Source of the DNA: a virus | Lineage: Duplodnaviria; Heunggongvirae; Uroviricota; Caudoviricetes | DNA length: 64,000 bases | Strand: one strand, 5' to 3' | IMG/VR virus record: IMGVR_UViG_3300031576_000015 | Location: 29,996-93,995 of that record | Shown here: positions 14,277-55,939 of the stretch, one piece after another | Layout: every line of letters starts with the position of its first letter | Numbering within the stretch: the first letter of the stretch is position 1 | The notes under the pieces: model-generated | Databases searched by the model: none | Seen by the model: the letters and a program-made list of their open reading frames with translations, nothing else | What the model was told of the DNA's origin: nothing | Made by a program: the position numbers and the translations under genes

Positions 14277-15434
14277 CTAATAACCTGTTGGCTCGTTCAG
14301 GTTTCGAAGGACTACGTGGCGGTCTGGCTGGTACGTGCCGAACTCCATGTGGCCTTCCAGCGTTGCGCTGTAGACAAGCTTGGAGGAGTCTCGGGCCAGG
14401 ATTGCGCCGTCGTCGTCCATCCAGTCAATGTCGGCCAGCATGAAGAAGCGGAGCACGCTCTCGTCGAGGCCGAAGACAACCTTCTTTTCGGCGTCTCGGT
14501 CGACGAACCAGGGCTTGCCATTGTACTCCAGAGCCTCGAAACCGGCGTCAAACTTCAGTGTGTTCACGTAGCGCCTGTCGGCGGTTACGATCTGCACATA
14601 GTTGGATCGCTGGCCCAGGTTGGAGTAGAAGGCGGAGAGCTTACCGCCACCCTTGATGTAGGCCTTGTCCTCCATCTGCTGCAGAAGTACCTGCGTCAGA
14701 TCTCGGTCCGTAGCGTTCTCAAGGGCTGTAGACTTCCAGTACTCGTTGGTTGCCCGTGCAATGTTCTGCAGGGTGCCAACGAAGTCGCCGTCGTCGACGA
14801 CGCCTAGTAGACCCATAACATTAATGCCGCGACCGGTGCTCTTGAAGATGAAGTCGTTGTTGGACCCATCGGACCAAGCAGTGTCGATCGTGATGACATG
14901 GGTGTCGTAGTTAACGTCTGTGACGGTCTTGGCGGCGCCACCACCCGTTCGCTGTGTACCACCCGTTCGCGCAGACCACATGTTTAGGACCATGTTCTTG
15001 CGGACGTTGAGGGAGTTGTCAGCGGTTAGGGAGGTTGTTGTAGCGCCTGCTGTGATCTTTGCAAGGGCACCAGACCCGTCGCTGTTAAGCATCCAGTTCA
15101 GGTCCTTGCGTAGGTTGTCGCCTACGTTCTTCAGCTTGAAGTCCACTGCCTGAACGAAGGCTCCCCGGTCATTCTTAGTGGCGGCGATGACCTTGGTGGT
15201 TACTTCGAACTTACCGAAGACCGTTCGGACTGGTCCGGACGATTCGGCCGTGGACTCTGTTCCCGGAGCGGGAATGGCAGAGTCTTCGCCGATAGCACCA
15301 GAGGTTTCACCCCATGCGGAGTGGACCGGGAAGTAAAACTTCTTACCTACCACATTCTCTCTATCCCGCTTGATGCGGTTATAGAGCACGATCTCCTTGT
15401 TGAACTGCTGCTGTAGTACTGGCAGGTAGTCCAA
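14277..15434 (-). CDS. major capsid protein (HK97-fold candidate)
   Basis: 385-aa ORF following the scaffold-like gene; size and position fit a major capsid protein. Confidence 0.6.
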   Translation of the reverse strand: MDYLPVLQQQFNKEIVLYNRIKRDRENVVGKKFYFPVHSAWGETSGAIGEDSAIPAPGTESTAESSGPVRTVFGKFEVTTKVIAATKNDRGAFVQAVDFKLKNVGDNLRKDLNWMLNSDGSGALAKITAGATTTSLTADNSLNVRKNMVLNMWSARTGGTQRTGGGAAKTVTDVNYDTHVITIDTAWSDGSNNDFIFKSTGRGINVMGLLGVVDDGDFVGTLQNIARATNEYWKSTALENATDRDLTQVLLQQMEDKAYIKGGGKLSAFYSNLGQRSNYVQIVTADRRYVNTLKFDAGFEALEYNGKPWFVDRDAEKKVVFGLDESVLRFFMLADIDWMDDDGAILARDSSKLVYSATLEGHMEFGTYQPDRHVVLRNLNEPTGY

Positions 15435-19510: not shown

Positions 19511-21607
19511 TTAGGCCTCAGCCCCGGGTGGTGGGCCTCCAGGCCCCTCGGACCCTGGCGGGGGACCAGCTTGTGCTGGTGGGGCTGCTGGAGCGCTTGG
19601 CGGGGCTCCTGGTGGTGGTTGTGGGAGTGCGGGCGGTCCTGGAGGGCCGCCCGGGGCGCCTGGTTGTGGTGGAACCATAGCCATTTGCAGCTGTTGAATG
19701 CCCTGCTGGATGGACAGTTTCTCTTCTTCCTGCTTGAGAATAATCTGCCGCATGCGTAGCTCGTGCCCACGAATGTGGTTGGTCATGATCTCAATTACGG
19801 TCTGGGCGGCCTCCTCATCCCCATGCTCGAGGGCATATTCCTTGAGGAAACGGACGTGCTGGTTCATGTGAACCATGTGATTGTCGTATTCGCCCGGCTC
19901 AAACTGGGATTGTCGATCTCGCATCTCTACGTTCTCGGTACGGGCCACCCGTAGGTCGATGCTCTCGTCCTGTCGGAAGACATCCACGGCGGATTGCATC
20001 TCTAGGAACTCGAAGAACTTGGCTTCATCCGGTTGGTTACGTTCGTTACGGAAGAAGCCCCGGTCAAGCATTTCCAGAGCGAACTGCATACGTGCCGCCT
20101 TGGACATAGGCAGGGATGAACCTATGTCTACCAGAACCCGGAATCGGCCCTGCAGCTTCTCCCGGGTAAACTCCACAACGGCCGCCTCGGTACCCAGGCC
20201 CATGTAGACGATGCGGGCCTCGGTATAGAACTGCTTGGCCAACTCAAGGATATGCTCTCCGACCTTACGGAAGCTATTCTCATTCCATTGCAGTACGGGG
20301 CCAAATGGAGTGTCATCGGCCTCCTGCAACATAGCCATGCCTGCGGCGGTACGAACACCCGGAGCGTTCATGCCCCGGCTGATGTAGTGATGGGAGCTGG
20401 TCTCCATCATGTCCTGCTCAGTGCGGTCTAGCTCCTGCAATACGTAGCCAGGGATCGGCGGCGGAACCCAAGGTTCCGGCCTTCCTCCCAAGGGGCTGAA
20501 GTAGACCTTCTCGCCCGGTTCACTTGTCCAGGCATCCGCGCTGATCTCAGCTGATGTTGGTATGAGCAGCTTTGGCTTCGACATCAGGTTCTTGTTCTCG
20601 ATGATCTGGCTACGGGTTCGGTTATACTCCCTTTGAAGCGGGATCAGCTGCTCGATGATACCGCCACCCCACCAACGTCCAGGGTATACGATGTAATCAA
20701 ATTTAATTAAGGGGAGTTCGCCGTGTTCATAGGGGAGTTCCTCTTCGTATTTTACAAAGACGTCCCCCACCAGTACGGCGTGCCGTCCCTTAGGATACTT
20801 CTTTGAGGGTCGTTCGAAGTACTCTTTCAGACGGGCCATGTCCTTGGCAACCGGGGGTGTTTCCCGGATGCCAAATTGTGGTCCCTGCATGATCGGGTCA
20901 AACGGGTAGATGATAGCTTCCAGCCCCGACTCGGGATGAATCTCATCCTTCATGTCTGGGTATCGTTCTTTAAGTGTTGCGACGGGTAGGGCTTTAGACC
21001 TCCAAACCCATTGCATGTCATCCCAATTCGTCGCTATAGGATCGGGGTAGACCTCGAACGGTGATACCACATCCAGGACGACGTCGCCCATCTTTTCCAG
21101 ACCTGCGTCCTTGTCCGTCAGGAGAGCATCCGGCTCGGCCATCTCCGGCATCTCGATAGCATCCCCGACCGAGTGGTCCCACCACGGCATCACAAAGCCG
21201 GTGCCGCAAGCTAAGATCCAACCGTACAACTCAATGGACTTGCGTCCATCGAAGTCCTGTGTGTTCCAAATATGCTTGACGAGTCTGTCACCAACTTTAG
21301 CAGTTTGCACGTCCTGCTCATCGCCGGAGGCTGGAATTACGTCCGGCATGGGGCGGGTCTTGAGAAGCCGTCCTAGGCTGGATCGCCAGATAGGCAGAAT
21401 GCGGTTGGCTACCAGACGTACGCGCCATGATGGCGCTGGCATCTCGATGATCTTACGCTGAAGACGGTGCCATGCGGTGTACTGGCGACCGATGAGCCAG
21501 GCCAGATTAAGGCGCCACTGAGTCTCGAATGGATTCCGTGCCACCTCGGCATCGTGGAACCGCTCGTTTATCGTACCCTTGACCTTGGAATCGAGTTTTA
21601 GGGCCAT
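19511..21607 (-). CDS. portal protein
   Basis: 698-aa ORF next to the terminase; Pro/Gly-rich C-terminal tail; size and synteny fit a portal. Confidence 0.7.
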   Translation of the reverse strand: MALKLDSKVKGTINERFHDAEVARNPFETQWRLNLAWLIGRQYTAWHRLQRKIIEMPAPSWRVRLVANRILPIWRSSLGRLLKTRPMPDVIPASGDEQDVQTAKVGDRLVKHIWNTQDFDGRKSIELYGWILACGTGFVMPWWDHSVGDAIEMPEMAEPDALLTDKDAGLEKMGDVVLDVVSPFEVYPDPIATNWDDMQWVWRSKALPVATLKERYPDMKDEIHPESGLEAIIYPFDPIMQGPQFGIRETPPVAKDMARLKEYFERPSKKYPKGRHAVLVGDVFVKYEEELPYEHGELPLIKFDYIVYPGRWWGGGIIEQLIPLQREYNRTRSQIIENKNLMSKPKLLIPTSAEISADAWTSEPGEKVYFSPLGGRPEPWVPPPIPGYVLQELDRTEQDMMETSSHHYISRGMNAPGVRTAAGMAMLQEADDTPFGPVLQWNENSFRKVGEHILELAKQFYTEARIVYMGLGTEAAVVEFTREKLQGRFRVLVDIGSSLPMSKAARMQFALEMLDRGFFRNERNQPDEAKFFEFLEMQSAVDVFRQDESIDLRVARTENVEMRDRQSQFEPGEYDNHMVHMNQHVRFLKEYALEHGDEEAAQTVIEIMTNHIRGHELRMRQIILKQEEEKLSIQQGIQQLQMAMVPPQPGAPGGPPGPPALPQPPPGAPPSAPAAPPAQAGPPPGSEGPGGPPPGAEA

Positions 21608-22319: not shown

Positions 22320-24536
22320 TTAGATCTCCCAGGTGGCCTGGAACATCTCCTCTTCCTTCATGCCCCGTGCCCAAGTTGTTACCTGCTTAGGCGTACGGTC
22401 AGGAGACGCTGTTGGCCGGCTTACCAATAGATAGCGTAGGGCGTCTAGTGCATGATCGTTGATCTTACGAGGCCTTTCCGGCTCGTTACGCCGGGACCGC
22501 CTAAGTGTGCTCAACTCGTCCCAGACATACTCCTTGAACTCCCGGATTAGGTTGGGTGCCATTCCAGATAGGATCTGGAGTTTGGGCCGGCCTGTGGTCG
22601 GGTCGAGCACGTTCAGGTACTTCTGGACAACGGCAATACCCGATCCTACGTCTCGTAAGGACTCGGCGACCGGAGCTTTCACGACAGGAACCCCGACCTC
22701 ATAGTACTGCTGGGCCGGGCTTTCTCCGGAGGTACCTTCCTTGTTGAACGCCGATGGGTCAATAAGGGAGTATTGGAACCGTTCTAGCGGTATCAGTTCC
22801 CCTGTCTTGTGATCCCTCATTGTGCGGCGCTTGCGAATCTCCTTGGCATGATCCATAGCCAAGGGGCCGGGCTGATAATACTCGTCGTAGATATAGACAG
22901 TACCGGTTGGGCTTATCGTTGCCCACAAGCAGACGGTAGGATTGCGGGTTCCATGATCGATAGTCCGATACCGGTGCCAGTATTCTGGTATCTCTCTTGT
23001 GAACTGACCATTGACCAGGACACCTGGGGAGAGATGCGTAGGAAGCAAATTGTAGACAAGACCGCCGGCTTCTTCCCAGGACCCGTAGTAGTGGCGTCTC
23101 TTCCACTCCTCCGGCATTGCCTCCATGTCAGCAATATAGTCCTCCGGCAGATTCTCTATGTTGTCTAAGGTGCTACCTTCGACCAGGACGTAGTCAGTGG
23201 GATCGAAGCCTGGTATCTTTCGGCGTCCAGAAGCTTCTTGCCCCTCCTGGGTGAAGAGCTGCCAGTACCAGTTGTGTCCTCGGTAGTTGGCTTCCAGAAA
23301 GGCGTATTGCCGGGGCAACGGGCCCCAGCGTCCCGACTGGCGGCGCAGGCGCTTCGTGAGCTCCTGCCAGTGTTCCTCAGTTATTCCGTCGTCATCTGCC
23401 TGGCTGATCCCGAAGAAGTTGAGGTTCTCACTGTTCTTGCTAGCATAGCCCCAGACCACATAATTGCCGGTTGTGGTCTCTAGAGCATAGACATCTTCTT
23501 CTCCATCTGGAGTAACCGAGACAATTTCTTCCTTACTCAGTGCTAACTTGCCCCGGCCGTCCAGAACTTCACGCAATCGTCCAGCTTTCGCGGGTCGGCA
23601 CAGTAATAGAAATCTGTGGATTCCGGCTATTCCGTCAGTAATTAAGTATTTGGTGCCTTCATCGCTATCCGACTTACTCCAGGAAAAGCCTAGCATGGCG
23701 AGGGCCAATTCGATTCGATCACAAACTTCGGGATTCGTCTTCCTATTCTGGAACAGTGATAGGGTAGTACCGTCCACATCCCGACGGACATTTCCCTCGC
23801 CGTCGAAGATTCCACCCAACCAAAGAGCAAGTTCATTCTGTTCTTCGGTAAGTGGAGTAATCAGTTTGGATACACGAGCCAAAACCAATCCGACTCGTGT
23901 TCTTCGATAATATGGGTCCTGGTCCATAGAGGGGGAATAGAGGGCTTTGAACCAGCGATGATCCGCTGTACAACGAATTATTTCGCCCGAGGTCAGTTGA
24001 ACCTTGACTATCGGCGCCCGAAGTTTGGCAACTGCTAGGATTGTTGCTGTGGTTGGTCTCCGGGTCTGCCCTTGGTTGCCTATATCAAAACCTATGATAT
24101 GGTCGCCGACCACTATCTGGTTGATTGGTTTATAGGACCAATCCGCCATAAGAATAGGGGCCTCCCCCGGATTACAACGGTACTTCCTGGGGTCTTCCAG
24201 GTTGCGGAAGAGGATGGTAGATGTCCCTTCCAACGTTGGGCCCGACCGTAGCTCTAGCACTCCCTCGCTTCTTCGCCACTTACGGATCAGACCCTGCGGC
24301 AGTATCTCAAAGAACTGCGGCACTAAGGTGTTGTTTAGTTCTGGATAGGTGTAACGGGCGAGGATCCCACGGGAGTCAGGGTACTTTGTTGCGATGGCGA
24401 TTGCGCGTCGACAGAAGGCGGACGTCTTTCCGCATCCCATTGTACCCACGTAGGCGGCATATCGCTTGCTAGTAGCGATGAATGCAGATTGCTTGGGATT
24501 CCACTTACGTTCGAACGTCTCAGTTTGTCGAGCCAT
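22320..24536 (-). CDS. terL: terminase large subunit carrying an intein
   Basis: 738-aa ORF; Walker A 'GTMGCGKTSA'; intein blocks A (C121), B 'GEIIRCTADHRWF', F 'DVYALETTTGNYVV', LAGLIDADG-like 'LWLGGIFDGEGNV'. Confidence 0.75.
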   Translation of the reverse strand: MARQTETFERKWNPKQSAFIATSKRYAAYVGTMGCGKTSAFCRRAIAIATKYPDSRGILARYTYPELNNTLVPQFFEILPQGLIRKWRRSEGVLELRSGPTLEGTSTILFRNLEDPRKYRCNPGEAPILMADWSYKPINQIVVGDHIIGFDIGNQGQTRRPTTATILAVAKLRAPIVKVQLTSGEIIRCTADHRWFKALYSPSMDQDPYYRRTRVGLVLARVSKLITPLTEEQNELALWLGGIFDGEGNVRRDVDGTTLSLFQNRKTNPEVCDRIELALAMLGFSWSKSDSDEGTKYLITDGIAGIHRFLLLCRPAKAGRLREVLDGRGKLALSKEEIVSVTPDGEEDVYALETTTGNYVVWGYASKNSENLNFFGISQADDDGITEEHWQELTKRLRRQSGRWGPLPRQYAFLEANYRGHNWYWQLFTQEGQEASGRRKIPGFDPTDYVLVEGSTLDNIENLPEDYIADMEAMPEEWKRRHYYGSWEEAGGLVYNLLPTHLSPGVLVNGQFTREIPEYWHRYRTIDHGTRNPTVCLWATISPTGTVYIYDEYYQPGPLAMDHAKEIRKRRTMRDHKTGELIPLERFQYSLIDPSAFNKEGTSGESPAQQYYEVGVPVVKAPVAESLRDVGSGIAVVQKYLNVLDPTTGRPKLQILSGMAPNLIREFKEYVWDELSTLRRSRRNEPERPRKINDHALDALRYLLVSRPTASPDRTPKQVTTWARGMKEEEMFQATWEI
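23433..24176 (-). mobile_element. intein with LAGLIDADG-type endonuclease domain inside terL (approximate boundaries, ~aa 121-368)
   Basis: Hint-domain blocks plus 'LGGIFDGEG'; terminase is ~250 aa longer than usual. Confidence 0.55.
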
Positions 24537-29939: not shown

Positions 29940-30015
29940 TGGTACCCGCAGGTGGAGTTGAACCACCAATCAACGGTTTATAAGACCGTCCCGATCACCG
30001 TATCGGCTTGCGGGT
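29940..30015 (-). tRNA. tRNA-Ile (anticodon TAT)
   Basis: T-loop TTCAACT; anticodon loop CTTATAA; perfect acceptor; CCA encoded. Confidence 0.7.
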
Positions 30016-46021: not shown

Positions 46022-47227
46022 ATGCAGATTGCCCGTGTGCTCTCGATCCCAATCCAAATCCATATGCCAGTCCTAGTCATCGGGGAGCCAGGTGTCGGTA
46101 AGACCGCCACCATGTATAGCATCTCCCGTGCTCTTGGCTGGCACCTGGAGGTAGTCATCGCTTCCATTCGTGAGCCGGTGGACTTCTCTGGCTTCCCGTC
46201 CTTCAAGGACGTGCAGGTGGGGAACCGCATCCTCAGGGGCACCAGCCTTGCTGCACCCGACTGGGCACTCCGGTGCCTGGACACCAGTGGGACCTGCACT
46301 AGCCCACACTGCCCGTTCTACGACCGGGAACACCCTGTTGCGGGGCCGAGCATCATCCTGTTCGACGAGATCACTACAGCCGCGCCTGCCGTACAGGCCG
46401 CCCTGCTCCGCCCGGTGTTTGAGGGTGTGGTCGGGGAAGTAGCCTTGCCCAAGATTGCGGCACGGGTGGCTGCTGCCAACCCGGCGGAGATGGCTGCCGG
46501 TGGGTGGGACCTCACCGCCCCTCTCGCCAACCGCTTCATCCATCTGCCCTGGAAGTCCGAGACGGATGAATGGATTGAAGGCTCGTTGGCCGGGTGGCCG
46601 GAGCCGAAGTTGCCCATGCTCCCCGCCAAATGGATGGACCACTACCCGGACGCCATCACCAAGGTCGTTTCTTTCATCCGGGCCAAGCGCCAGTTGATTC
46701 AGATAGTCCCGGAGACAGAGGAACAGAAGGGCCGGGCATGGCCAAGCCGGCGCACCTGGACTATGGCCGCCCGCGTTTTGGCTGCCTGCAACAGCATCAA
46801 CGCCGACGATGGCATCCGCATCCCACTCATTGCCGGGTGTGTAGGCGTAGGACCTGGACAGGAGTTCGTGAACTGGCTCAAGCACCTGGACCTGCCCGAC
46901 CCGGCAGACCTCATCAAGAACCCGGAGTCGTTCAAGTTGCCCAAGACGGGCGACCAGCAATTCACCATCCTAGCGTCAGTGGCTACCTATACTGCCGGCA
47001 AGATCGAGAGTGACACCCTCACCAACAAGTCGAAAGAAGCCATCTGGCGGGCCGCCTGGAAGGTCATGGGAATGGCCGCCGAGCAGAACGCCAAGGACAT
47101 CGCCGCTGCGGCAGCGAAAACCCTGGCCAACCTGAAAGCCAAGCATCTGTGGCTACCCCTGCCAAAGGAGGATATCAAGCAGTTCGTGCCGCTCATGAAG
47201 CAGGCTGGCATGCTTGATGACGACTGA
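46022..47227 (+). CDS. MoxR-family AAA+ ATPase
   Basis: 401-aa ORF; Walker A 'GEPGVGKT', Walker B 'ILFDEI'; GGAGG RBS. Confidence 0.75.
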   Translation: MQIARVLSIPIQIHMPVLVIGEPGVGKTATMYSISRALGWHLEVVIASIREPVDFSGFPSFKDVQVGNRILRGTSLAAPDWALRCLDTSGTCTSPHCPFYDREHPVAGPSIILFDEITTAAPAVQAALLRPVFEGVVGEVALPKIAARVAAANPAEMAAGGWDLTAPLANRFIHLPWKSETDEWIEGSLAGWPEPKLPMLPAKWMDHYPDAITKVVSFIRAKRQLIQIVPETEEQKGRAWPSRRTWTMAARVLAACNSINADDGIRIPLIAGCVGVGPGQEFVNWLKHLDLPDPADLIKNPESFKLPKTGDQQFTILASVATYTAGKIESDTLTNKSKEAIWRAAWKVMGMAAEQNAKDIAAAAAKTLANLKAKHLWLPLPKEDIKQFVPLMKQAGMLDDD

Positions 47228-47478
47228 TGCCCAACAGCGACGACGCTGTCACCTTGAAGGCTGGCTTCACCGAAGATGGGAAGGTAGAGGTCCTGAAGGT
47301 GAAGTGCAACAACGGTGAGTTGCACCGCCTACAAATCAAGGATGGTAGAGTGCTCCTGCTTGACCACCCGCAGGACGAGATTGAGGCTGAGCAGGTGATG
47401 ACCAAACTCGGTGGCCGCCCTTGCGAATGTGTCCGTTTTCTCATGTGGGAACGCCAGAACATGAAGAGAAACCGATGA
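47227..47478 (+). CDS. hypothetical protein
   Basis: 83-aa ORF between the ATPase and the VWA gene; ATGA overlap at its end. Confidence 0.4.
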   Translation: MPNSDDAVTLKAGFTEDGKVEVLKVKCNNGELHRLQIKDGRVLLLDHPQDEIEAEQVMTKLGGRPCECVRFLMWERQNMKRNR

Positions 47479-48926
47479 GATGGCCGATGAGATGGCCAAG
47501 GTGGCCACGCTTCCAGCCTGTCGCTGTAATTGGGAAGTCGGGCGCCGAGACAATGCCGTTCGAACTCCAGGCAGCCCGTCTCGCCCTGGGTGACAAAAGA
47601 CCCTACCTCCAGACACTTCTCTACAGCCTCATCCCGCTTGAGAGAGCAACAGGAACTATGGGGCCACTTCCAACTCTGGCCGTAGACAAGTTCCACCGAC
47701 TTTACTATAATCCAGAAGTGGGCACAAAGTGGAATCAAGAACAACTCATGGCGGTGCTTTACCATGAGGTCCAGCATCTGCTTAGGGAGCATCCGGGTCG
47801 GGGGGAGGACAACCACGCCGACCCGACAATTTTCAACATCGCCGGGGACCTGGAAATCAACGACGACATTCAGGATGAAGAGGGCGGTACGTTCAAGTTG
47901 CCCAAGCCCTATCTTCACCCGAAGAACTTCGAGATGAACGGTAAGAAGTTCGAATGGCCTACTGGGCTAATGGCGGAGGAGTATTACGCCAAAATCCTGA
48001 AGGAAATCCCACCAGAACTCAAGCAAGGCGGTAAAGGCGGTAAACAGGAAGGTGGTGGCGGCCAGCCCCAGCCCGGCCAGGGAGCAGGCAAGGACCAACG
48101 AGTCAAGCAGGGTCAAGTCCAGCCCGGTGCGGGGTCCTGCGGCTCGGCATCCCACGGTCAGAAGGAGGAATGGGAGGAGGAAGGGCCTGGAGGCGCTGGA
48201 AAAGACGGCAAGCCAGCCCCTAACGGCGTTAGCCGGGCCGAGTCCGAACTCATCCAGCGCAAGGTGGCAGAGGACGTCAGGGACTACGACCCAAACGCAG
48301 AAGGGAACAAAGGCCGGGGTGACGCGCCAGCCTGGATGAAGCGATGGGCCAAGGACAAACTGAACCCAAAGGTCCCTTGGCAGAGGGTTCTGGCGGGTGT
48401 GTTCCGCAGGGCCATCGCGGATGTAAGTGGCATGGTGGACTTCACCTACCGCAAGCCGTCCAGGCGCATGGGTGCCAACCCCGACTTCGTGCTTCCGGCG
48501 TTCCGCCGGCCCATGCCACGCATCGTCTTCGTCGTGGATACCAGTGGTTCTATTTCCGATGCTATGCTGGCCCAAGACTTGGCGGAGGTCGCCCAGGTGC
48601 TGAAGACAGTGGGTGTATACGGCGGGATTACCGTAATGTCTGTGGACCACGCCGTCGGAACCTGCAAGAAGGTCATGTCCGTCAAGCAGGTGGACCTCAT
48701 TGGCGGCGGTGGTACGGACATGGGCATTGGGTTGGCCCACGCCGAAACCCTGAGGCCCAAGCCGGACATTGTGTGCGTCTTGACCGATGGTATCACACCC
48801 TGGCCAGGAAAAGCACCCAAGGGGTTCAAGGTTATCATCATTATCATGGGCAAGAACGCAATGCCAACTCCACCCTGGGGACGGGTGTTGTACATTGACG
48901 ACCCTATGAAGGGAGTGAGGGACTGA
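47475..48926 (+). CDS. VWA-domain protein with N-terminal HExxH metallopeptidase-like domain (DUF2201-like MoxR partner)
   Basis: 'YHEVQHLLREH' HExxH; MIDAS 'VVDTSGSIS'; start ambiguous (47475 ATGA-coupled, or 47553). Confidence 0.65.
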   Translation: MRWPMRWPRWPRFQPVAVIGKSGAETMPFELQAARLALGDKRPYLQTLLYSLIPLERATGTMGPLPTLAVDKFHRLYYNPEVGTKWNQEQLMAVLYHEVQHLLREHPGRGEDNHADPTIFNIAGDLEINDDIQDEEGGTFKLPKPYLHPKNFEMNGKKFEWPTGLMAEEYYAKILKEIPPELKQGGKGGKQEGGGGQPQPGQGAGKDQRVKQGQVQPGAGSCGSASHGQKEEWEEEGPGGAGKDGKPAPNGVSRAESELIQRKVAEDVRDYDPNAEGNKGRGDAPAWMKRWAKDKLNPKVPWQRVLAGVFRRAIADVSGMVDFTYRKPSRRMGANPDFVLPAFRRPMPRIVFVVDTSGSISDAMLAQDLAEVAQVLKTVGVYGGITVMSVDHAVGTCKKVMSVKQVDLIGGGGTDMGIGLAHAETLRPKPDIVCVLTDGITPWPGKAPKGFKVIIIIMGKNAMPTPPWGRVLYIDDPMKGVRD

Positions 48927-50681: not shown

Positions 50682-51376
50682 CGGCGGCGCTTCTGGTATG
50701 GGAAATTGGCGCACGCATGATTGGGTATCCAGTCCTAGTGCCGCCGTCGTTGGTAGTGCCACACCTGGTAGGTGTAGGGCTGTCCCACATCTGGGCTAGT
50801 ATGCAAGTCGTTCTCCTGGGCTTCGCTCTGGCCGGCACAACAGGTACGGCCGCCGGAATCCTGTCAGTACGTTATCATCTGGCCCACGACCTAGTTGTAC
50901 CAGTGGCCGACGCCATGCGGAACGTGTCCGCCCTAGCCCTGTTTCCACCACTCATCATTTTCCTAGGTCTGGGACTGTGGAGCAAGGGCTTTGTCATCTT
51001 GTGGGCGGCATGGCCAGCCGTGCTCCTATCCACCATCTTCGGATTGACAGCCGTAGACCGGGACGTTGTAGACGCCGCCCAACTTGACGGGGCCGGCCCT
51101 TGGATCGTGCTGTGGCACATCACCCTACCACTGTCGATGGGTGTCGTGCTTACAGGCTTGCGAATTGGCATGGGCGCTGGATGGGTAGCCTTGGTGGCCG
51201 CCGAGATGCTTGGGGCTAGCCGGGGCCTGGGCTGGCTGGTATTGTCCTATGCCCACACCTTTCAGTTCCCGGAGATGTACGCGGCCATCGTAGTCATAGC
51301 GGCCATAGGGTTCTGCATGAACACGGCTCTGCTTTGGCTGCAGGGTACTATCGAGAGGAGGTTATACGATGCGTAG
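50669..51376 (+). CDS. ABC transporter permease (SsuC/TauC/NrtB-like)
   Basis: Multiple TM helices plus the EAA-loop region 'AAQLDGAGPWIVLWHITLP'; start chosen at 50669, the first Met after the upstream stop. Confidence 0.6.
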   Translation: MGTLTAALLVWEIGARMIGYPVLVPPSLVVPHLVGVGLSHIWASMQVVLLGFALAGTTGTAAGILSVRYHLAHDLVVPVADAMRNVSALALFPPLIIFLGLGLWSKGFVILWAAWPAVLLSTIFGLTAVDRDVVDAAQLDGAGPWIVLWHITLPLSMGVVLTGLRIGMGAGWVALVAAEMLGASRGLGWLVLSYAHTFQFPEMYAAIVVIAAIGFCMNTALLWLQGTIERRLYDA

Positions 51377-52384: not shown

Positions 52385-53215
52385 ATGACAGTGATAGGAA
52401 AGTCCCACGTTATTTGCCTGAAGAAACATCGGCATAACGTGCAGTTTGTGCGGGGTAGTCTTATCGTCCCACACGCGCCCGATGAGTTCCTTATAGACAA
52501 AGTCTTTCGTCGACTCGGGCCACGCCAGATGAAGGCGTTCCGGTGCCACAACTTGGTGTTGGAATGGCGCGGCAAACGAAACAAATGGGGCGGCACGAAG
52601 ACGGATTACAGGAGCATCCCGGAGGACCTACGACATATACGCGAAACAGGGTGGCAAATCACCCGGGCGCGGGCAACCTTTCACCGGTGCCTAAGCCAAC
52701 TGAACGACTGGACCGGGAATGGTGACATACTGACCGCCCAAAAAGAGAAACGGGCACAACTCCGCATGGTGAGCACGGCCCGGGTACTGCTGGAGCGATA
52801 CACGAAGCAGGTGAACCTTGGCTCTCGCCCTGCTAAACGCGGTAAGCGAACTGTCCAGGAGTTCAAAGTCAGTTGGGACCCACAGGAAAGAGGACATGTG
52901 TACAATCACCTCTCTCTCTGGCGTAAGGCGGCCACGATCATATTCCAGGCCAGTCTATTCTGGGATGTTCACAAAGCCGGCATTGCCATTGCCACTCACT
53001 CCACGGAAGGCAAGGTGCTAGTCTTGGAAATCAAATCCAGAAAGGACAAGGTCTTCAAGGTTGAGGCCCTTTACCAATGGATGAAGGAGGAATATGGATG
53101 GGACTCGACAGGAAGTTACAGCCCAACCGGAAAGAAGCGCCTAGACCTAGAGTTCCGGGCGGCAACAGTCACCCTGGAGAACGGAACGCCGATGCTGAAG
53201 TGGACGACGAAGTGA
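52385..53215 (+). CDS. hypothetical basic protein
   Basis: Listed ORF 52088-53215 overlaps the SBP gene; first plausible start is ATG 52385 (GTG at 52280 also possible). Confidence 0.4.
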   Translation: MTVIGKSHVICLKKHRHNVQFVRGSLIVPHAPDEFLIDKVFRRLGPRQMKAFRCHNLVLEWRGKRNKWGGTKTDYRSIPEDLRHIRETGWQITRARATFHRCLSQLNDWTGNGDILTAQKEKRAQLRMVSTARVLLERYTKQVNLGSRPAKRGKRTVQEFKVSWDPQERGHVYNHLSLWRKAATIIFQASLFWDVHKAGIAIATHSTEGKVLVLEIKSRKDKVFKVEALYQWMKEEYGWDSTGSYSPTGKKRLDLEFRAATVTLENGTPMLKWTTK

Positions 53216-53243
53216 CTTCCAGGATCACAAGGGAGGTGATACG

Positions 53244-53561
53244 ATGAAGGCGGCCCGGCTAAGCAAGGATGATAAGCAGTACCGTTGCGGACTGTGCCTA
53301 TCATTCGTTCGGGTGGGTGAGTATTACCACGATGGTCACGGCCGCCTGATTGTGAACCATTCAGGTTCTAACCTGGCGTACCATCCCAGGTGCATCAAGA
53401 AGGCAGGCAAGAAAACTCAGGAGGTGGTTAGAAATGAGGTCGTACTGGAGCAGCCTAACGGAGAAGGAGAAACTCCTTTGGGCAGCGGGTTTCCTAGAGG
53501 GCGAGGGGAACTTCCAGTGGAACAAGACCCCGACAGCCCAGGCGAACCAGACTCAGCCTAG
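53244..53561 (+). CDS. small zinc-binding protein
   Basis: AAGGGAGGTGA RBS; 'CGLC...H..H...C'; low-complexity tail overlaps the endonuclease remnant. Confidence 0.4.
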   Translation: MKAARLSKDDKQYRCGLCLSFVRVGEYYHDGHGRLIVNHSGSNLAYHPRCIKKAGKKTQEVVRNEVVLEQPNGEGETPLGSGFPRGRGELPVEQDPDSPGEPDSA

Positions 53562-53700
53562 GACCGCTCCGTAGACTCCGGTCTATCTTCGGTGGTAATA
53601 TCTATCGCCTAAGCCTAGCCGGGGAAAGGGCGAAGGGACGTAAGACCAGGGACGCCCACCGATGGGCCGTACACGGCTTCAAGGCACGTTCCGCGATGGA
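53434..53700 (+). pseudogene. frameshifted LAGLIDADG homing endonuclease remnant sharing Ku's MRSYWS start
   Basis: Frame 1: MRSYWSSLTEKEKLLWAAGFLEGEGNF...stop at 53572; frame 2 continues ...SIFGGNIYRLSLAGERAKG...(HE C-terminal 'GGxIY' region). Confidence 0.55.
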
Positions 53701-53769
53701 CCGGCTATATCCGCACCTAAGCACACGACGCCAGAAACAAATCCAAGTTGCAAAGGGGAGTGGATTCTG

Positions 53770-54546
53770 ATGCGGAGTTACTGGTCAGGAACCTTGACCA
53801 TCGGATTGCTGTCGATACCCGTAAAACTCTACGGGGCGGTGAAGAGCCACGACAGTTCGTTCAAGAGGGTTCACAAAAACTGCATGAGCCCAGTGAAACA
53901 GGTGAACCGGTGCCCGGAGTGTGAACGGGATGTTCTCCACACAGAACTGACACGGGGTCATGAGTTCACCAAAGGTCGTTTCGTAGAGGTAACGGACACC
54001 GACCTGGATAACCTCCCCCTCCCATCGGCAGGGACTATTCTGCTCGATGGCTTTGCTCCCTCCGGCATATTGCCGGACATGCGCCGGGAGAAGTCAGTCT
54101 ACTTGGGACCGGACAAGGGCGGCGGCAAGGCATATGCCGTGCTGGCAAGGGCCATGCGGGACCAGGGCGTATCGGCTGTGGGCAAGGTGGCTATCAGGGA
54201 CCGTGAGCACCTGGTGGCTATCGAGTCGCCCGACGGACGGGCACTGACGCTCACCCAAGTCTACTACGCCGATGAAGTGGCGCCGGCTTCCGAGATCCCA
54301 GACCTACCGGACACTGACGCCGCCTCCCCCAAGGAGGTTGACATGGCAAAGCAAGTCATCGGCATCCTGCCCTTGGATGGGGCACTGGATAACTACACCG
54401 ACGGGGCACAGGAAGCCCTGGGCAAGATTCTGGAAGCCAAGGCTACCGGCCAGCCCTTGCCAGAGGTCAGGGTTCGCCCAGCCACCGCACCGGACGATCT
54501 GCTCACAGCCTTGAAGAAGACACTGGAGGCCAAGAGGGGGGCATAG
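53770..54546 (+). CDS. ku: Ku (NHEJ DNA end-binding protein)
   Basis: Canonical bacterial Ku N-terminus 'MRSYWSGTLTIGLLSIPVKLY'; the listed ORF start at 53662 is an upstream extension. Confidence 0.8.
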   Translation: MRSYWSGTLTIGLLSIPVKLYGAVKSHDSSFKRVHKNCMSPVKQVNRCPECERDVLHTELTRGHEFTKGRFVEVTDTDLDNLPLPSAGTILLDGFAPSGILPDMRREKSVYLGPDKGGGKAYAVLARAMRDQGVSAVGKVAIRDREHLVAIESPDGRALTLTQVYYADEVAPASEIPDLPDTDAASPKEVDMAKQVIGILPLDGALDNYTDGAQEALGKILEAKATGQPLPEVRVRPATAPDDLLTALKKTLEAKRGA

Positions 54547-54549
54547 GCC

Positions 54550-54738
54550 ATGCATGAGTTCTGGCACTTGCTGACGGATCCTGCCCACTGGGGCCTGGAG
54601 ATTGTGGCCAATCTAGTCATCGACGGCTTACTCCTGGCCCTGCTCTGGCCCCGACTCCGCTCGAGCGTCTTTCGGCATTTGCATCGTTACATTCAGGACG
54701 CCAAAGAGGGTCGGCCTCTTGACAAGGAGGGAGGATAA
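54550..54738 (+). CDS. small membrane protein
   Basis: 62-aa ORF with a hydrophobic helix. Confidence 0.35.
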   Translation: MHEFWHLLTDPAHWGLEIVANLVIDGLLLALLWPRLRSSVFRHLHRYIQDAKEGRPLDKEGG

Positions 54739-55037
54739 TGATTCCGTTTGTGACATGGCAGTGGGAAGTTGAATGGTACCTAAGTGTTACAATCCTCCTC
54801 TGGGCCACCGCGTTTATCTTTGCGGGATACCGGGGCTTCGATGAAGTTATTGAAGGCGTCTCAGCGGACACGAACGTCGCCGTAGTCTTCTTCGTGCCAC
54901 TATTCTGGCCAGTGATACTTGGCATCGCTGGCCTTATTGTGCCATTCTATTGCTTATGGTGGTTGGGCCGTTGGGTACGCCGTAAGATAGAGTTCTGGCC
55001 CAAGGTCATACGCCGGCTTGGGGGTGACAGATCATGA
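54738..55037 (+). CDS. membrane protein
   Basis: 99-aa ORF with three TM helices. Confidence 0.4.
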   Translation: MIPFVTWQWEVEWYLSVTILLWATAFIFAGYRGFDEVIEGVSADTNVAVVFFVPLFWPVILGIAGLIVPFYCLWWLGRWVRRKIEFWPKVIRRLGGDRS

Positions 55038-55939
55038 GAGCACCACTCATCGCAATCCTGAAGGTCGCCATGAAGTCGAAGAATAGAAAGACGGGTGAGG
55101 TAGTGGCTACCTACCGCACACAGGACTCCTGCCCACTCTCCTGCCCATTCCTCAAGAACGGGTGCTACGCCGAGCATGGGTTCCCGTCATCCTTTGACAT
55201 CGCCGAGAAGTGGGGCAAGACGGAGGTGGAGACTGTTCAGGAAATCATCGACGCCGCGCCTTTTGGCGGGCTCGTCCGACATCATGTTTCTGGAGATATT
55301 GGGCGGCTCGCCGCAGCCACACTGGGTCATCCCGGGTATTCCCCAGGGCAAGATTACAGCGCCAACAAAGAAGACCCCGGGCAGCGCAGTCCTTCTTCTG
55401 GCACAGTGCACAACACCCACGGACTTGCGCCTCATACCACTCCTCCGACAGACCATACTTCCATTTCAAGTCAGCACGCCGACGTGCCTGCCGCCATTTC
55501 TGTCCTCGACGATACCGAGATATTGCTTCGCGGTCGTACACGGGACACCTCCATCGATTGGACTTACCTAGACCTACTCAAGAGTATAGCACAGAAGCGA
55601 CCGGACCTCAAGCATATCCTTTACACACATTACTGGAGGGAAGTCACTCCAGACCAGTTCGCCTGGCCCGTGAACGCATCCTGTGAAACGGAAGGGGAGA
55701 TTCAGGAGGCCCTGGATCGTGGGTTTGAGGCAGTTGTCACAGTGGGCCATCCAACAGATCCGCTAGTGGGTAAGGTAATCGGCGGGAAGAAGGTCATCAT
55801 CTGCCCGGAGGAGACACATGAGAACGTTACCTGCGCCTCCTGCAAACTCTGCGCCCGGAACCGAAAGTCCATCGTCGCCTTCGTCGCCCATGGGGCTGGA
55901 CAGAGGAAAGTCAGAGCCGCGCTCAATGCTAAGCGGTGA
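55034..55939 (+). CDS. Gp37/Gp68-like (DUF5131) protein with a low-complexity central insert
   Basis: N-terminal 'SCPLSCPFLKNGCYA'; central Pro/Ser/Thr-rich ~80 aa exactly where an antisense EndoVII-like ORF lies. Confidence 0.4.
   Translation: MRAPLIAILKVAMKSKNRKTGEVVATYRTQDSCPLSCPFLKNGCYAEHGFPSSFDIAEKWGKTEVETVQEIIDAAPFGGLVRHHVSGDIGRLAAATLGHPGYSPGQDYSANKEDPGQRSPSSGTVHNTHGLAPHTTPPTDHTSISSQHADVPAAISVLDDTEILLRGRTRDTSIDWTYLDLLKSIAQKRPDLKHILYTHYWREVTPDQFAWPVNASCETEGEIQEALDRGFEAVVTVGHPTDPLVGKVIGGKKVIICPEETHENVTCASCKLCARNRKSIVAFVAHGAGQRKVRAALNAKR
55245..55541 (-). CDS. endonuclease VII-like (HNH-related) protein, antisense within 55034-55939
   Basis: 'KYGLSEEWYEAQVRGCCALC...RGLLCWRCNLALG' matches the Endonuclease_7 family; DHDH segment absent. 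Confidence 0.5.
   Translation of the reverse strand: MYDREAISRYRRGQKWRQARRRADLKWKYGLSEEWYEAQVRGCCALCQKKDCAARGLLCWRCNLALGNTRDDPVWLRRAAQYLQKHDVGRARQKARRR

Follow-up and report, generated by a model that had tools for sequence, protein, structure and literature searches.

We describe a gene remnant lying directly upstream of ku in a 64,000-nucleotide stretch of phage DNA, referred to as the window (positions 29,996 to 93,995 of IMG/VR record IMGVR_UViG_3300031576_000015), whose source is a tailed phage of about 94 kb. The remnant is best explained, with a probability of about 0.75, as a decaying homing endonuclease gene (HEG) of the LAGLIDADG type, free-standing and single-motif (homodimer-type), that stands immediately 5' of the phage ku gene. 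Its reading frame is broken once, and its first six residues, MRSYWS, are those of Ku. The features concerned are as follows.

53419 to 53426, plus strand: Shine-Dalgarno-like AGGAGGTG, read from the sequence, its end 7 nucleotides (nt) before ATG 53434.
53434 to 53451, plus strand: ku codons 1-6 in their upstream copy, ATG AGG TCG TAC TGG AGC (MRSYWS), in frame with the endonuclease open reading frame (ORF); six of six residues match ku.
53434 to 53574, plus strand: endonuclease pseudogene, frame-1 part of 46 codons and TAG; matches the family hidden Markov model (HMM) at positions 4-37 (E 1.4e-11).
53479 to 53514, plus strand: LAGLIDADG-type helix WAAGFLEGEGNF within the frame-1 part; motif invariant in 31 sequences, with the predicted catalytic Glu24.
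53550 to 53563, plus strand: single extra nucleotide, ...CAG ACT CAG CCT A GGA CCG...; removal of any one base gives a 111-codon ORF.
53561 to 53770, plus strand: endonuclease pseudogene as continued in frame 2 (+1), GPLRRLRSIFGG ... RRQKQIQVAKGSGF; matches the family HMM at positions 37-97 (E 2.3e-16).
53755 to 53760, plus strand: ku ribosome-binding site (RBS) GGGGAG, within the 3'-terminal part of the endonuclease ORF; read from the sequence, ends 9 nt before ATG 53770.
53770 to 54546, plus strand: intact phage ku, 258 residues (Pfam Ku 4e-34, PHROG 4873 3.5e-39).

The two parts are halves of one gene. The frame-1 ORF from ATG 53434 reads MRSYWSSLTEKEKLLWAAGFLEGEGNFQWNKTPTAQANQTQPRTAP and stops at TAG 53572-53574, and the +1 frame goes on with ...LSLGPLRRLRSIFGGNIYRLSLAGERAKGRKTRDAHRWAVHGFKARSAMDRLYPHLSTRRQKQIQVAKGSGF, also ...GPLRRLRSIFGGNIYRLSLAGERAKGRKTRDAHRWAVHGFKARSAMDRLYPHLSTRRQKQIQVAKGSGF, to a TGA stop at 53768-53770 that shares one base with the ku ATG (TGATG). 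The +1 frame has no start codon, and the ORF list has no entry of at least 25 residues there. In a search with the core family HMM, which was built from 30 homologues with the window sequence left out, the match of frame 1 ends at the position where that of frame 2 begins, so that the halves abut. The family spacing A-x-Q-V-x-x-E-P-L is gapless in the 30 homologues, and the repaired window copy reads A-N-Q-T-Q-P-G-P-L. Hence, the lesion is the insertion of a single nucleotide at about 53550-53563. Deletion of one base anywhere in this interval yields a 111-residue ORF that matches HMM positions 4-97 with 96.8-99.6 bits (E 4e-31 to 3e-30), a score within the range of intact homologues, and that ends at the same point as many of them. 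Aside from the extra nucleotide, the endonuclease gene has no further stops or lesions. Each half alone also matches PHROG 5046 (1.5e-3 and 5.5e-6), while the conceptual fusion does so at 7.8e-12 over profile positions 4-106 of 161. Because of the extra nucleotide, translation from the strong RBS and ATG 53434 halts 46 codons in, which leaves the downstream two thirds of the gene without a start of their own. The sequence-only reading, which had been made from the letters of this DNA, described MRSYWSS and a LAGLIDADG helix in frame 1 with a stop at 53572, a continuation of the enzyme in frame 2, and decay by a +1 frameshift and a deletion. The WAAGFLEGEG helix, the stop and the continuation agree with that description, and the splitting of the family HMM across two frames bears out the frameshift. 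The deletion falls away, since the two frames together leave nothing of the HMM between positions 4 and 97 missing and the end is shared with many intact homologues.

The fused protein has 37 homologues with 33-45% identity, aligned over about 85% of its length. Invariant in the alignment are WAAGFLEGEGxF, one Gln and a Pro-Leu, together with the pattern L...FGG...W..G.RA....LY.L.S.RRQ.QI. The helix AAGFLEGEG (residues 17-25) lines up with the GFVDGDG of I-CreI-type enzymes, and Glu24-Gly25 is invariant in 31 family sequences; judged from this alignment, Glu24-Gly25 would occupy the position of the catalytic Asp-Gly of I-CreI. A profile search against PDB sequences gave 57 matches, of which 56 are to LAGLIDADG enzymes (best E 5e-5), aligned from the motif to the FG.G turn, and the alignments put the helix onto the motif of OnuI-type enzymes. 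Weak matches to Pfam LAGLIDADG_1 occur in 21 of the 31 aligned members, and by its sequences the family is a divergent subfamily beyond the present Pfam LAGLIDADG models. A Pfam DUF7026 match to residues 1-22 (E 0.047) was dismissed as noise.

The AlphaFold2 model of the repaired protein has a mean predicted local distance difference test score of 91.2 and a predicted template modelling score of 0.81. Its elements are helix 10-24, strands 26-29 and 35-41, helix 44-54, strands 57-61 and 76-82, and helix 83-96, in an overall order of alpha-beta-beta-alpha-beta-beta-alpha-alpha. The repaired protein is thus confidently predicted to carry the alpha-beta-beta-alpha-beta-beta-alpha core fold of LAGLIDADG enzymes. 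In a Foldseek comparison of the model with the PDB, the top 42 matches are all LAGLIDADG enzymes, with probabilities of 0.98-1.00 and TMq values up to 0.64. The best is the homodimeric I-CvuI (5.6e-4, TMq 0.64), followed by I-CeuI, I-MsoI and I-CreI. Family, motif, predicted fold and PDB matches support the assignment of the locus as a LAGLIDADG-type endonuclease gene, the identity that the sequence-only reading had given it.

The family is very large: at 50% identity it comprises 21,157 clusters when matches with E up to 1e-3 are counted, and 7,382 with a limit of 1e-10. Its members are found mainly in phage contigs, where they are free-standing, lie in early regions and have varied contexts, and most are unannotated. 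Among cultured phages, the labels of homologues are inconsistent: the Streptomyces phages Coruscant and Tribute have 'HNH endonuclease', Sollertia has 'LAGLIDADG endonuclease', and BoomerJR, Genie2, Stanimal and the Pelagibacter phages HTVC103P and HTVC104P have 'hypothetical protein'; the Tribute match also overlaps a 'Ro-like RNA binding protein' gene. We found no biochemically characterised member, the cultured-phage homologues carrying generic annotations only. PHROG 5046, whose profile is matched by the fused window protein, is itself named 'HNH endonuclease', although the core is LAGLIDADG-like. This label looks wrong for the core domain, and it probably stems from a Cys/His-rich C-terminal extension of some members.

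Two further forms of the family were seen. The top-scoring representatives (P0168-P0183, 216-434 residues) contain two copies of the core domain in tandem, and are probably monomeric double-motif forms of the same mini-LAGLIDADG family. In five IMG/VR loci, the core lies inside far longer stop-free frames (L056:37-3297, L043:2311-3462, L009:2932-3795, L026:2719-3621 and L065:2935-3774); at L056 it is found at the extreme C-terminus of a frame of 1087 codons. These long frames may represent host genes to which the core is fused in phase, or proteins of several domains.

We then turn to ku and the shared N-terminus. The ku gene opens at ATG 53770 with MRSYWSGTLTIGLL... (MRSYWSG). The window ku covers positions 2-190 of the 190 of the Pfam Ku profile, and public gene calls give the identical start of the 258-residue protein (P0038), so the ku start proposed from the sequence stands. 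Ku homologues begin with MR[PSA]xW[KRST]G, a conserved N-terminal signature of the form MRxxWxG, and the nearest other Ku in the databases searched is 44% identical. Codons 1-6 of ku (ATG CGG AGT TAC TGG TCA, 53770-53787) give MRSYWS again, in recoded form. Across seven codons from the start, the two copies are identical at 12 of 21 nt, six of which are forced by Met and Trp, and both Ser codons switch class between them (TCG/AGT and AGC/TCA). Hence, the match exists at the protein level only and is not a recent DNA duplication. Of the duplicated ku start in the sequence-only reading, the six shared residues remain, and a simple duplication does not, as the copies are recoded. A 6-bp inverted repeat, TGGTCA-N7-TGACCA (53782-53800), lies across the point where the duplicated ku codons give way to the remainder of the gene. 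It was considered as a pair of target half-sites and set aside, being statistically unremarkable and still intact in the window genome.

The start of the endonuclease ORF is unusual in two respects. As a control, family ORF starts were compared with downstream gene starts taken from loci other than their own, 810 pairs in all. The window locus has an identical run of five residues after Met (RSYWS), against a maximum of three in the control. In 83 of the 173 family proteins, the motif Trp lies 5-9 residues from the start. The window copy has 15 residues up to this Trp, and nine once the six Ku residues are removed, nine being the modal length in the family. This makes the six Ku residues look as if they had been added to an endonuclease N-terminus of the usual kind. 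That the shared MRSYWS is nevertheless coincidental or convergent, the endonuclease having always stood free upstream of ku and never been inserted in it, is improbable. Such a reading draws on the shortness of the match, six residues with 12 of 21 nt identical and six of those forced, and on the rest of the family, as a Ku-like N-terminus occurs in no other member among 173, and the flanks of other members hold no ku within 3 kb. It has to contend with a control in which a run of even four residues occurs in 0 of 810 pairs, with a run that holds the rare residues Trp and Tyr, sits exactly at both starts and fits the Ku signature, and with the fact that these six residues are extra relative to the modal N-terminus. 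It has also to contend with a second locus, L001 on a related phage contig, where a recoded terminal duplication is beyond doubt.

At L001, the family gene ends with ...EEALVIALFPDDIQLILKEG before its stop codon, and a PC4-like gene just upstream ends with ...LRLVIALFPDDIQLIPKE before its own. The duplicated piece is 16 residues long, LVIALFPDDIQLI[P/L]KE, and is located at L001:2948-2998 and L001:3430-3483. Of the 16 residues, 15 agree between the copies, and changes affect 10 codons, nine synonymously; this terminal match scores 69, while the null maximum is 30. All ten of ten PC4-like homologues end with FLRLV[IV]ALFP..[VI]QL[IV], which indicates that the duplicated piece at L001 is the conserved C-terminus of the PC4-like host gene. 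On a related contig (L085), the PC4-like gene is followed directly by the next conserved gene (the GKLGGQY gene) with no endonuclease in between; at L084 a family member is present at the PC4-like site without the duplication, and L001 has both. Comparison of these sequences thus points to a presence/absence polymorphism of the family at a syntenic site, empty in L085 and filled in L084 and L001, with at least one instance fused in phase to a recoded host end. A footprint general to the family was considered and rejected after a comparison of 81 family loci, the match at L057 being a paralogous Zn-ribbon domain and the rest low-complexity noise.

The break in the reading frame was weighed against two other accounts, both raised in the sequence-only reading. 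The first is a sequencing or assembly indel, in which case the endonuclease gene would actually be intact. A perfect 111-residue ORF is only one nucleotide away with no other stop or lesion, one sample may underlie all records, and Logan contigs break nearby (53172/53178), which could be population variation. We consider this account improbable as well. The same DNA is on record as a MEGAHIT contig of 94,014 bp (ENA ERZ27247320, k141_3047314), and two Logan contigs of run SRR8536157 cover the window DNA. Across the site, the MEGAHIT contig and Logan contig SRR8536157_1332936, which come from different assemblers, match the window with 0 mismatches in 6443 and 3384 nt, respectively. The site CAGCCTAGGACC is not a homopolymer, the setting in which Illumina and assembler indels concentrate, which makes an assembler artefact unlikely.

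The second account, a programmed +1 ribosomal frameshift near CCU-AGG-A giving a low level of full-length endonuclease and so keeping a toxic enzyme scarce, is less probable still. The frame-2 part is otherwise undamaged and its stop overlaps the start of ku, AGG is among the less used Arg codons, and +1 shifts at rare AGG codons are known, as at CUU-AGG-C in Ty1. Against it, tRNA-Pro on CCU would be unable to re-pair on CUA. The interval 53550-53563 (G ACT CAG CCT AGG A) offers no recognised slippery motif, no re-pairing option, no upstream Shine-Dalgarno-like stimulator and no homopolymer for transcriptional slippage, and AGG makes up 12% of Arg codons and is not especially rare; programmed frameshifting is therefore improbable. 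Intact homologues, which the sequence-only reading had pointed to as a check, are plentiful: of 81 homologous loci, 80 have the core undivided, with HMM positions about 2-100 covered by one ORF, the sole exception (L063) being a C-terminal truncation, so that a frameshift is not conserved. Frameshifts are common in phage HEGs and are their usual form of decay (PMC10448857). Both accounts, artefact and programmed shift, are far less likely than a pseudogene.

A group I intron or an intein in ku, with Ku made by splicing from the first MRSYWS, can be dismissed almost outright, given that 52800-54400, scanned with Rfam up to an E of 10, yielded three weak, irrelevant matches and no group I or group II intron, that the 336-nt interval is occupied by the ORF and leaves no room for a ribozyme core, that ku has its own RBS and a complete start downstream, that no Hint or intein domains were detected, and that the homologues are free-standing in varied contexts.

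A decaying HEG at the 5' end of ku suggests the following course of events. The element would have been inserted in the 5' end of ku after codon 6, at a HEG-free site that would have read ...ATGAGGTCGTACTGGAGC joined directly to GGAACCTTGACC.... The endonuclease ORF would have taken over the original RBS of ku and its first six codons, and so begin with MRSYWS. The 3' end of the element would have brought the GGGGAG RBS, the TGATG overlap and recoded codons 1-6, so that full-length Ku could still be made. A site that is both split and recoded would protect the carrier from its own enzyme, and the recoding would remove DNA repeats through which the element could be deleted. Once fixed, the endonuclease would be dispensable and could decay, here through one inserted base, as in the usual life cycle of homing endonucleases. 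Alternatively, the Ku-like N-terminus may have been gained in an earlier host, with the cassette now lying just upstream of ku; the two courses fit the data alike. The claim of the sequence-only reading that the 5' end of ku was invaded accordingly stands in part: the six Ku residues fit an old invasion and L001 provides an independent mirror case in the family, while no close HEG-free ku turned up in the databases searched. More tentatively, and with somewhat less than even odds, we propose that this phage family invades the ends of genes without an intron or intein by carrying a recoded 'patch' of terminal codons (N-terminal and with an RBS at ku, C-terminal at the PC4-like gene of L001), which would keep the host gene working, destroy the target and remove repeats.

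Several observations weigh against the insertion of a LAGLIDADG HEG at ku. In Pfam, the window protein scores 13.3 bits with LAGLIDADG_1, over the motif only, where the gathering score is 23.1 bits; across the family, too, scores stay below the gathering scores of LAGLIDADG_1 and LAGLIDADG_3, the best E among 31 members being 0.0016. For every family member, endonuclease activity and a target site are putative. The duplicate is only six residues long, and a whole-flank test for terminal duplications at 81 other family loci gave one clear case, L001, and a marginal one, L004 (YERER). The two assemblies may come from the same reads. Finally, no HEG-free relative of the phage or of the window ku was found in the databases searched, and the insertion, its direction and the identity of the native copy are putative. 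A nucleotide search with 52500-55500 gave no match among 50,697 phage records, and IMG/VR loci searched by way of Ku yielded no relatives. IMG/VR and JGI metagenome contigs were also scanned for the exact pattern of the frameshift site with 0-3 nt of variation; this gave no hit and hence neither HEG-intact nor HEG-free variants.

One neighbouring ORF overlaps the locus.

53244 to 53561, plus strand: neighbour ORF of 105 codons with a Cys/His-rich N-terminal part (CxxC...HxxC-like); gene call in both public assemblies.

Its 3' end crosses the endonuclease N-terminus over 128 nt in the third frame, and its TAG stop (53559-53561) coincides with the frameshift site and the presumed inserted base. 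It has no Pfam match, and its sole PHROG match is non-significant (E 0.22). This ORF is counted as a neighbour rather than as a part of the element, and its called C-terminus may not be the true one. A scan of 52800-54800 revealed no promoter-like sites and one terminator-like site only, on the minus strand and within chance expectation.

The ku gene sits in a plus-strand early region of the genome. Minus-strand PHROG matches include the major head protein (14277-15434), the portal protein (19511-21607) and the large terminase (22320-24536). In the terminase (738 residues), terminase profiles match residues 13-103 and 385-711, leaving about 280 residues unmatched in between; Pfam detects no intein domain in the protein, and the gap may be an insertion or merely divergence. 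The ENA contig begins at window position 51104, across which the window and one Logan contig are continuous, so the phage genome is probably circular or circularly permuted. At window 53172-53178, about 260 nt upstream of the endonuclease start, two Logan contigs of the same run end and begin 5 nt apart. No repeat in the window accounts for this break, which might result from low coverage or population variation near the element. The segment 50654-52271 encodes the permease of an ABC transporter (BPD_transp_1, 6.5e-25) together with a substrate-binding protein that is NMT1/THI5-like (5.5e-20). Both genes appear to be auxiliary metabolic genes for a transporter of the nitrate/sulfonate/taurine type, an unusual phage cargo. 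At 46022-48926, an AAA-type ATPase gene is paired with a gene for a DUF2201 metallopeptidase/VWA-like protein, which PHROG 1314 calls 'HNH endonuclease', at odds with its Pfam domains.

For annotation, 53434-53770 should be described as a frameshifted LAGLIDADG-type HEG pseudogene, rather than as a pair of small ORFs or a continuation of the upstream gene; likewise, the PHROG 5046 label is misleading for the core domain. Current understanding is not overturned. The locus looks like an ordinary mobile gene in decay that has left a neat footprint of its insertion. Phage LAGLIDADG genes are mostly intein- or intron-encoded. The predicted core of the window protein resembles I-CreI, I-CeuI, I-MsoI and I-CvuI, its best PDB matches, in having one LAGLIDADG-type helix with an acidic end and the same predicted fold. 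It differs from I-CreI-type enzymes in its size (about 100 residues for the core, theirs having 150-210) and its short beta hairpins, and in that the gene is free-standing in a phage genome rather than intron-encoded and is known from sequence and a model. Compact homodimeric LAGLIDADG scaffolds of about 100 residues could interest meganuclease engineers.

For phage HEGs, a place beside or within essential or DNA-metabolism genes is well known, examples being T4 MobA, which splits gene 39/60 (PMC5009743), and the HEGs of ICP1 (PMC10448857). The window gene is like the T4 seg/mob genes and the ICP1 HEGs in that a selfish nuclease gene abuts a conserved DNA-metabolism gene and decays by frameshift, and the presence/absence among relatives seen in L085 versus L084 and L001 is, at the level of the family, a further likeness to free-standing phage HEGs. 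In contrast, the T4 and ICP1 enzymes are of the GIY-YIG, HNH or T5orf172 types, and ku is not split or interrupted but would be patched with a recoded start.

The closest parallel lies in fungal mitochondria, where the recoded-duplicate behaviour has so far mainly been documented. In mORF elements, an endonuclease ORF is accompanied by a foreign C-terminal copy of atp6, atp9, cox2 or nad3, as in Glomus (PMC3630166); according to that paper, which cites Paquin et al. 1994, the duplicates are alike as proteins with 64-81% DNA identity. Another mORF that creates a hybrid gene is the one at Allomyces atp6 (Paquin et al. 1994). Free GIY-YIG genes are associated with a duplication of the atp9 N-terminus (PMC7487136). 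As in mORF elements, the window endonuclease ORF adjoins a host gene that remains intact and is in phase with a duplicate of that gene's terminus, and the copies are alike as protein and diverged as DNA (six of six residues, 12 of 21 nt). The ku case differs in that it is from a bacteriophage, N-terminal and six codons long, whereas classical mORF cases involve C-termini and tens of codons; L001 is their C-terminal analogue. The ku locus and the clearer L001 would thus be phage examples of an endonuclease gene that moves into one end of a coding sequence and leaves that end duplicated in recoded form and, if the tentative patch mechanism is true, it would be the bacteriophage counterpart of the mORF hybrid-gene mechanism of fungal mitochondria.

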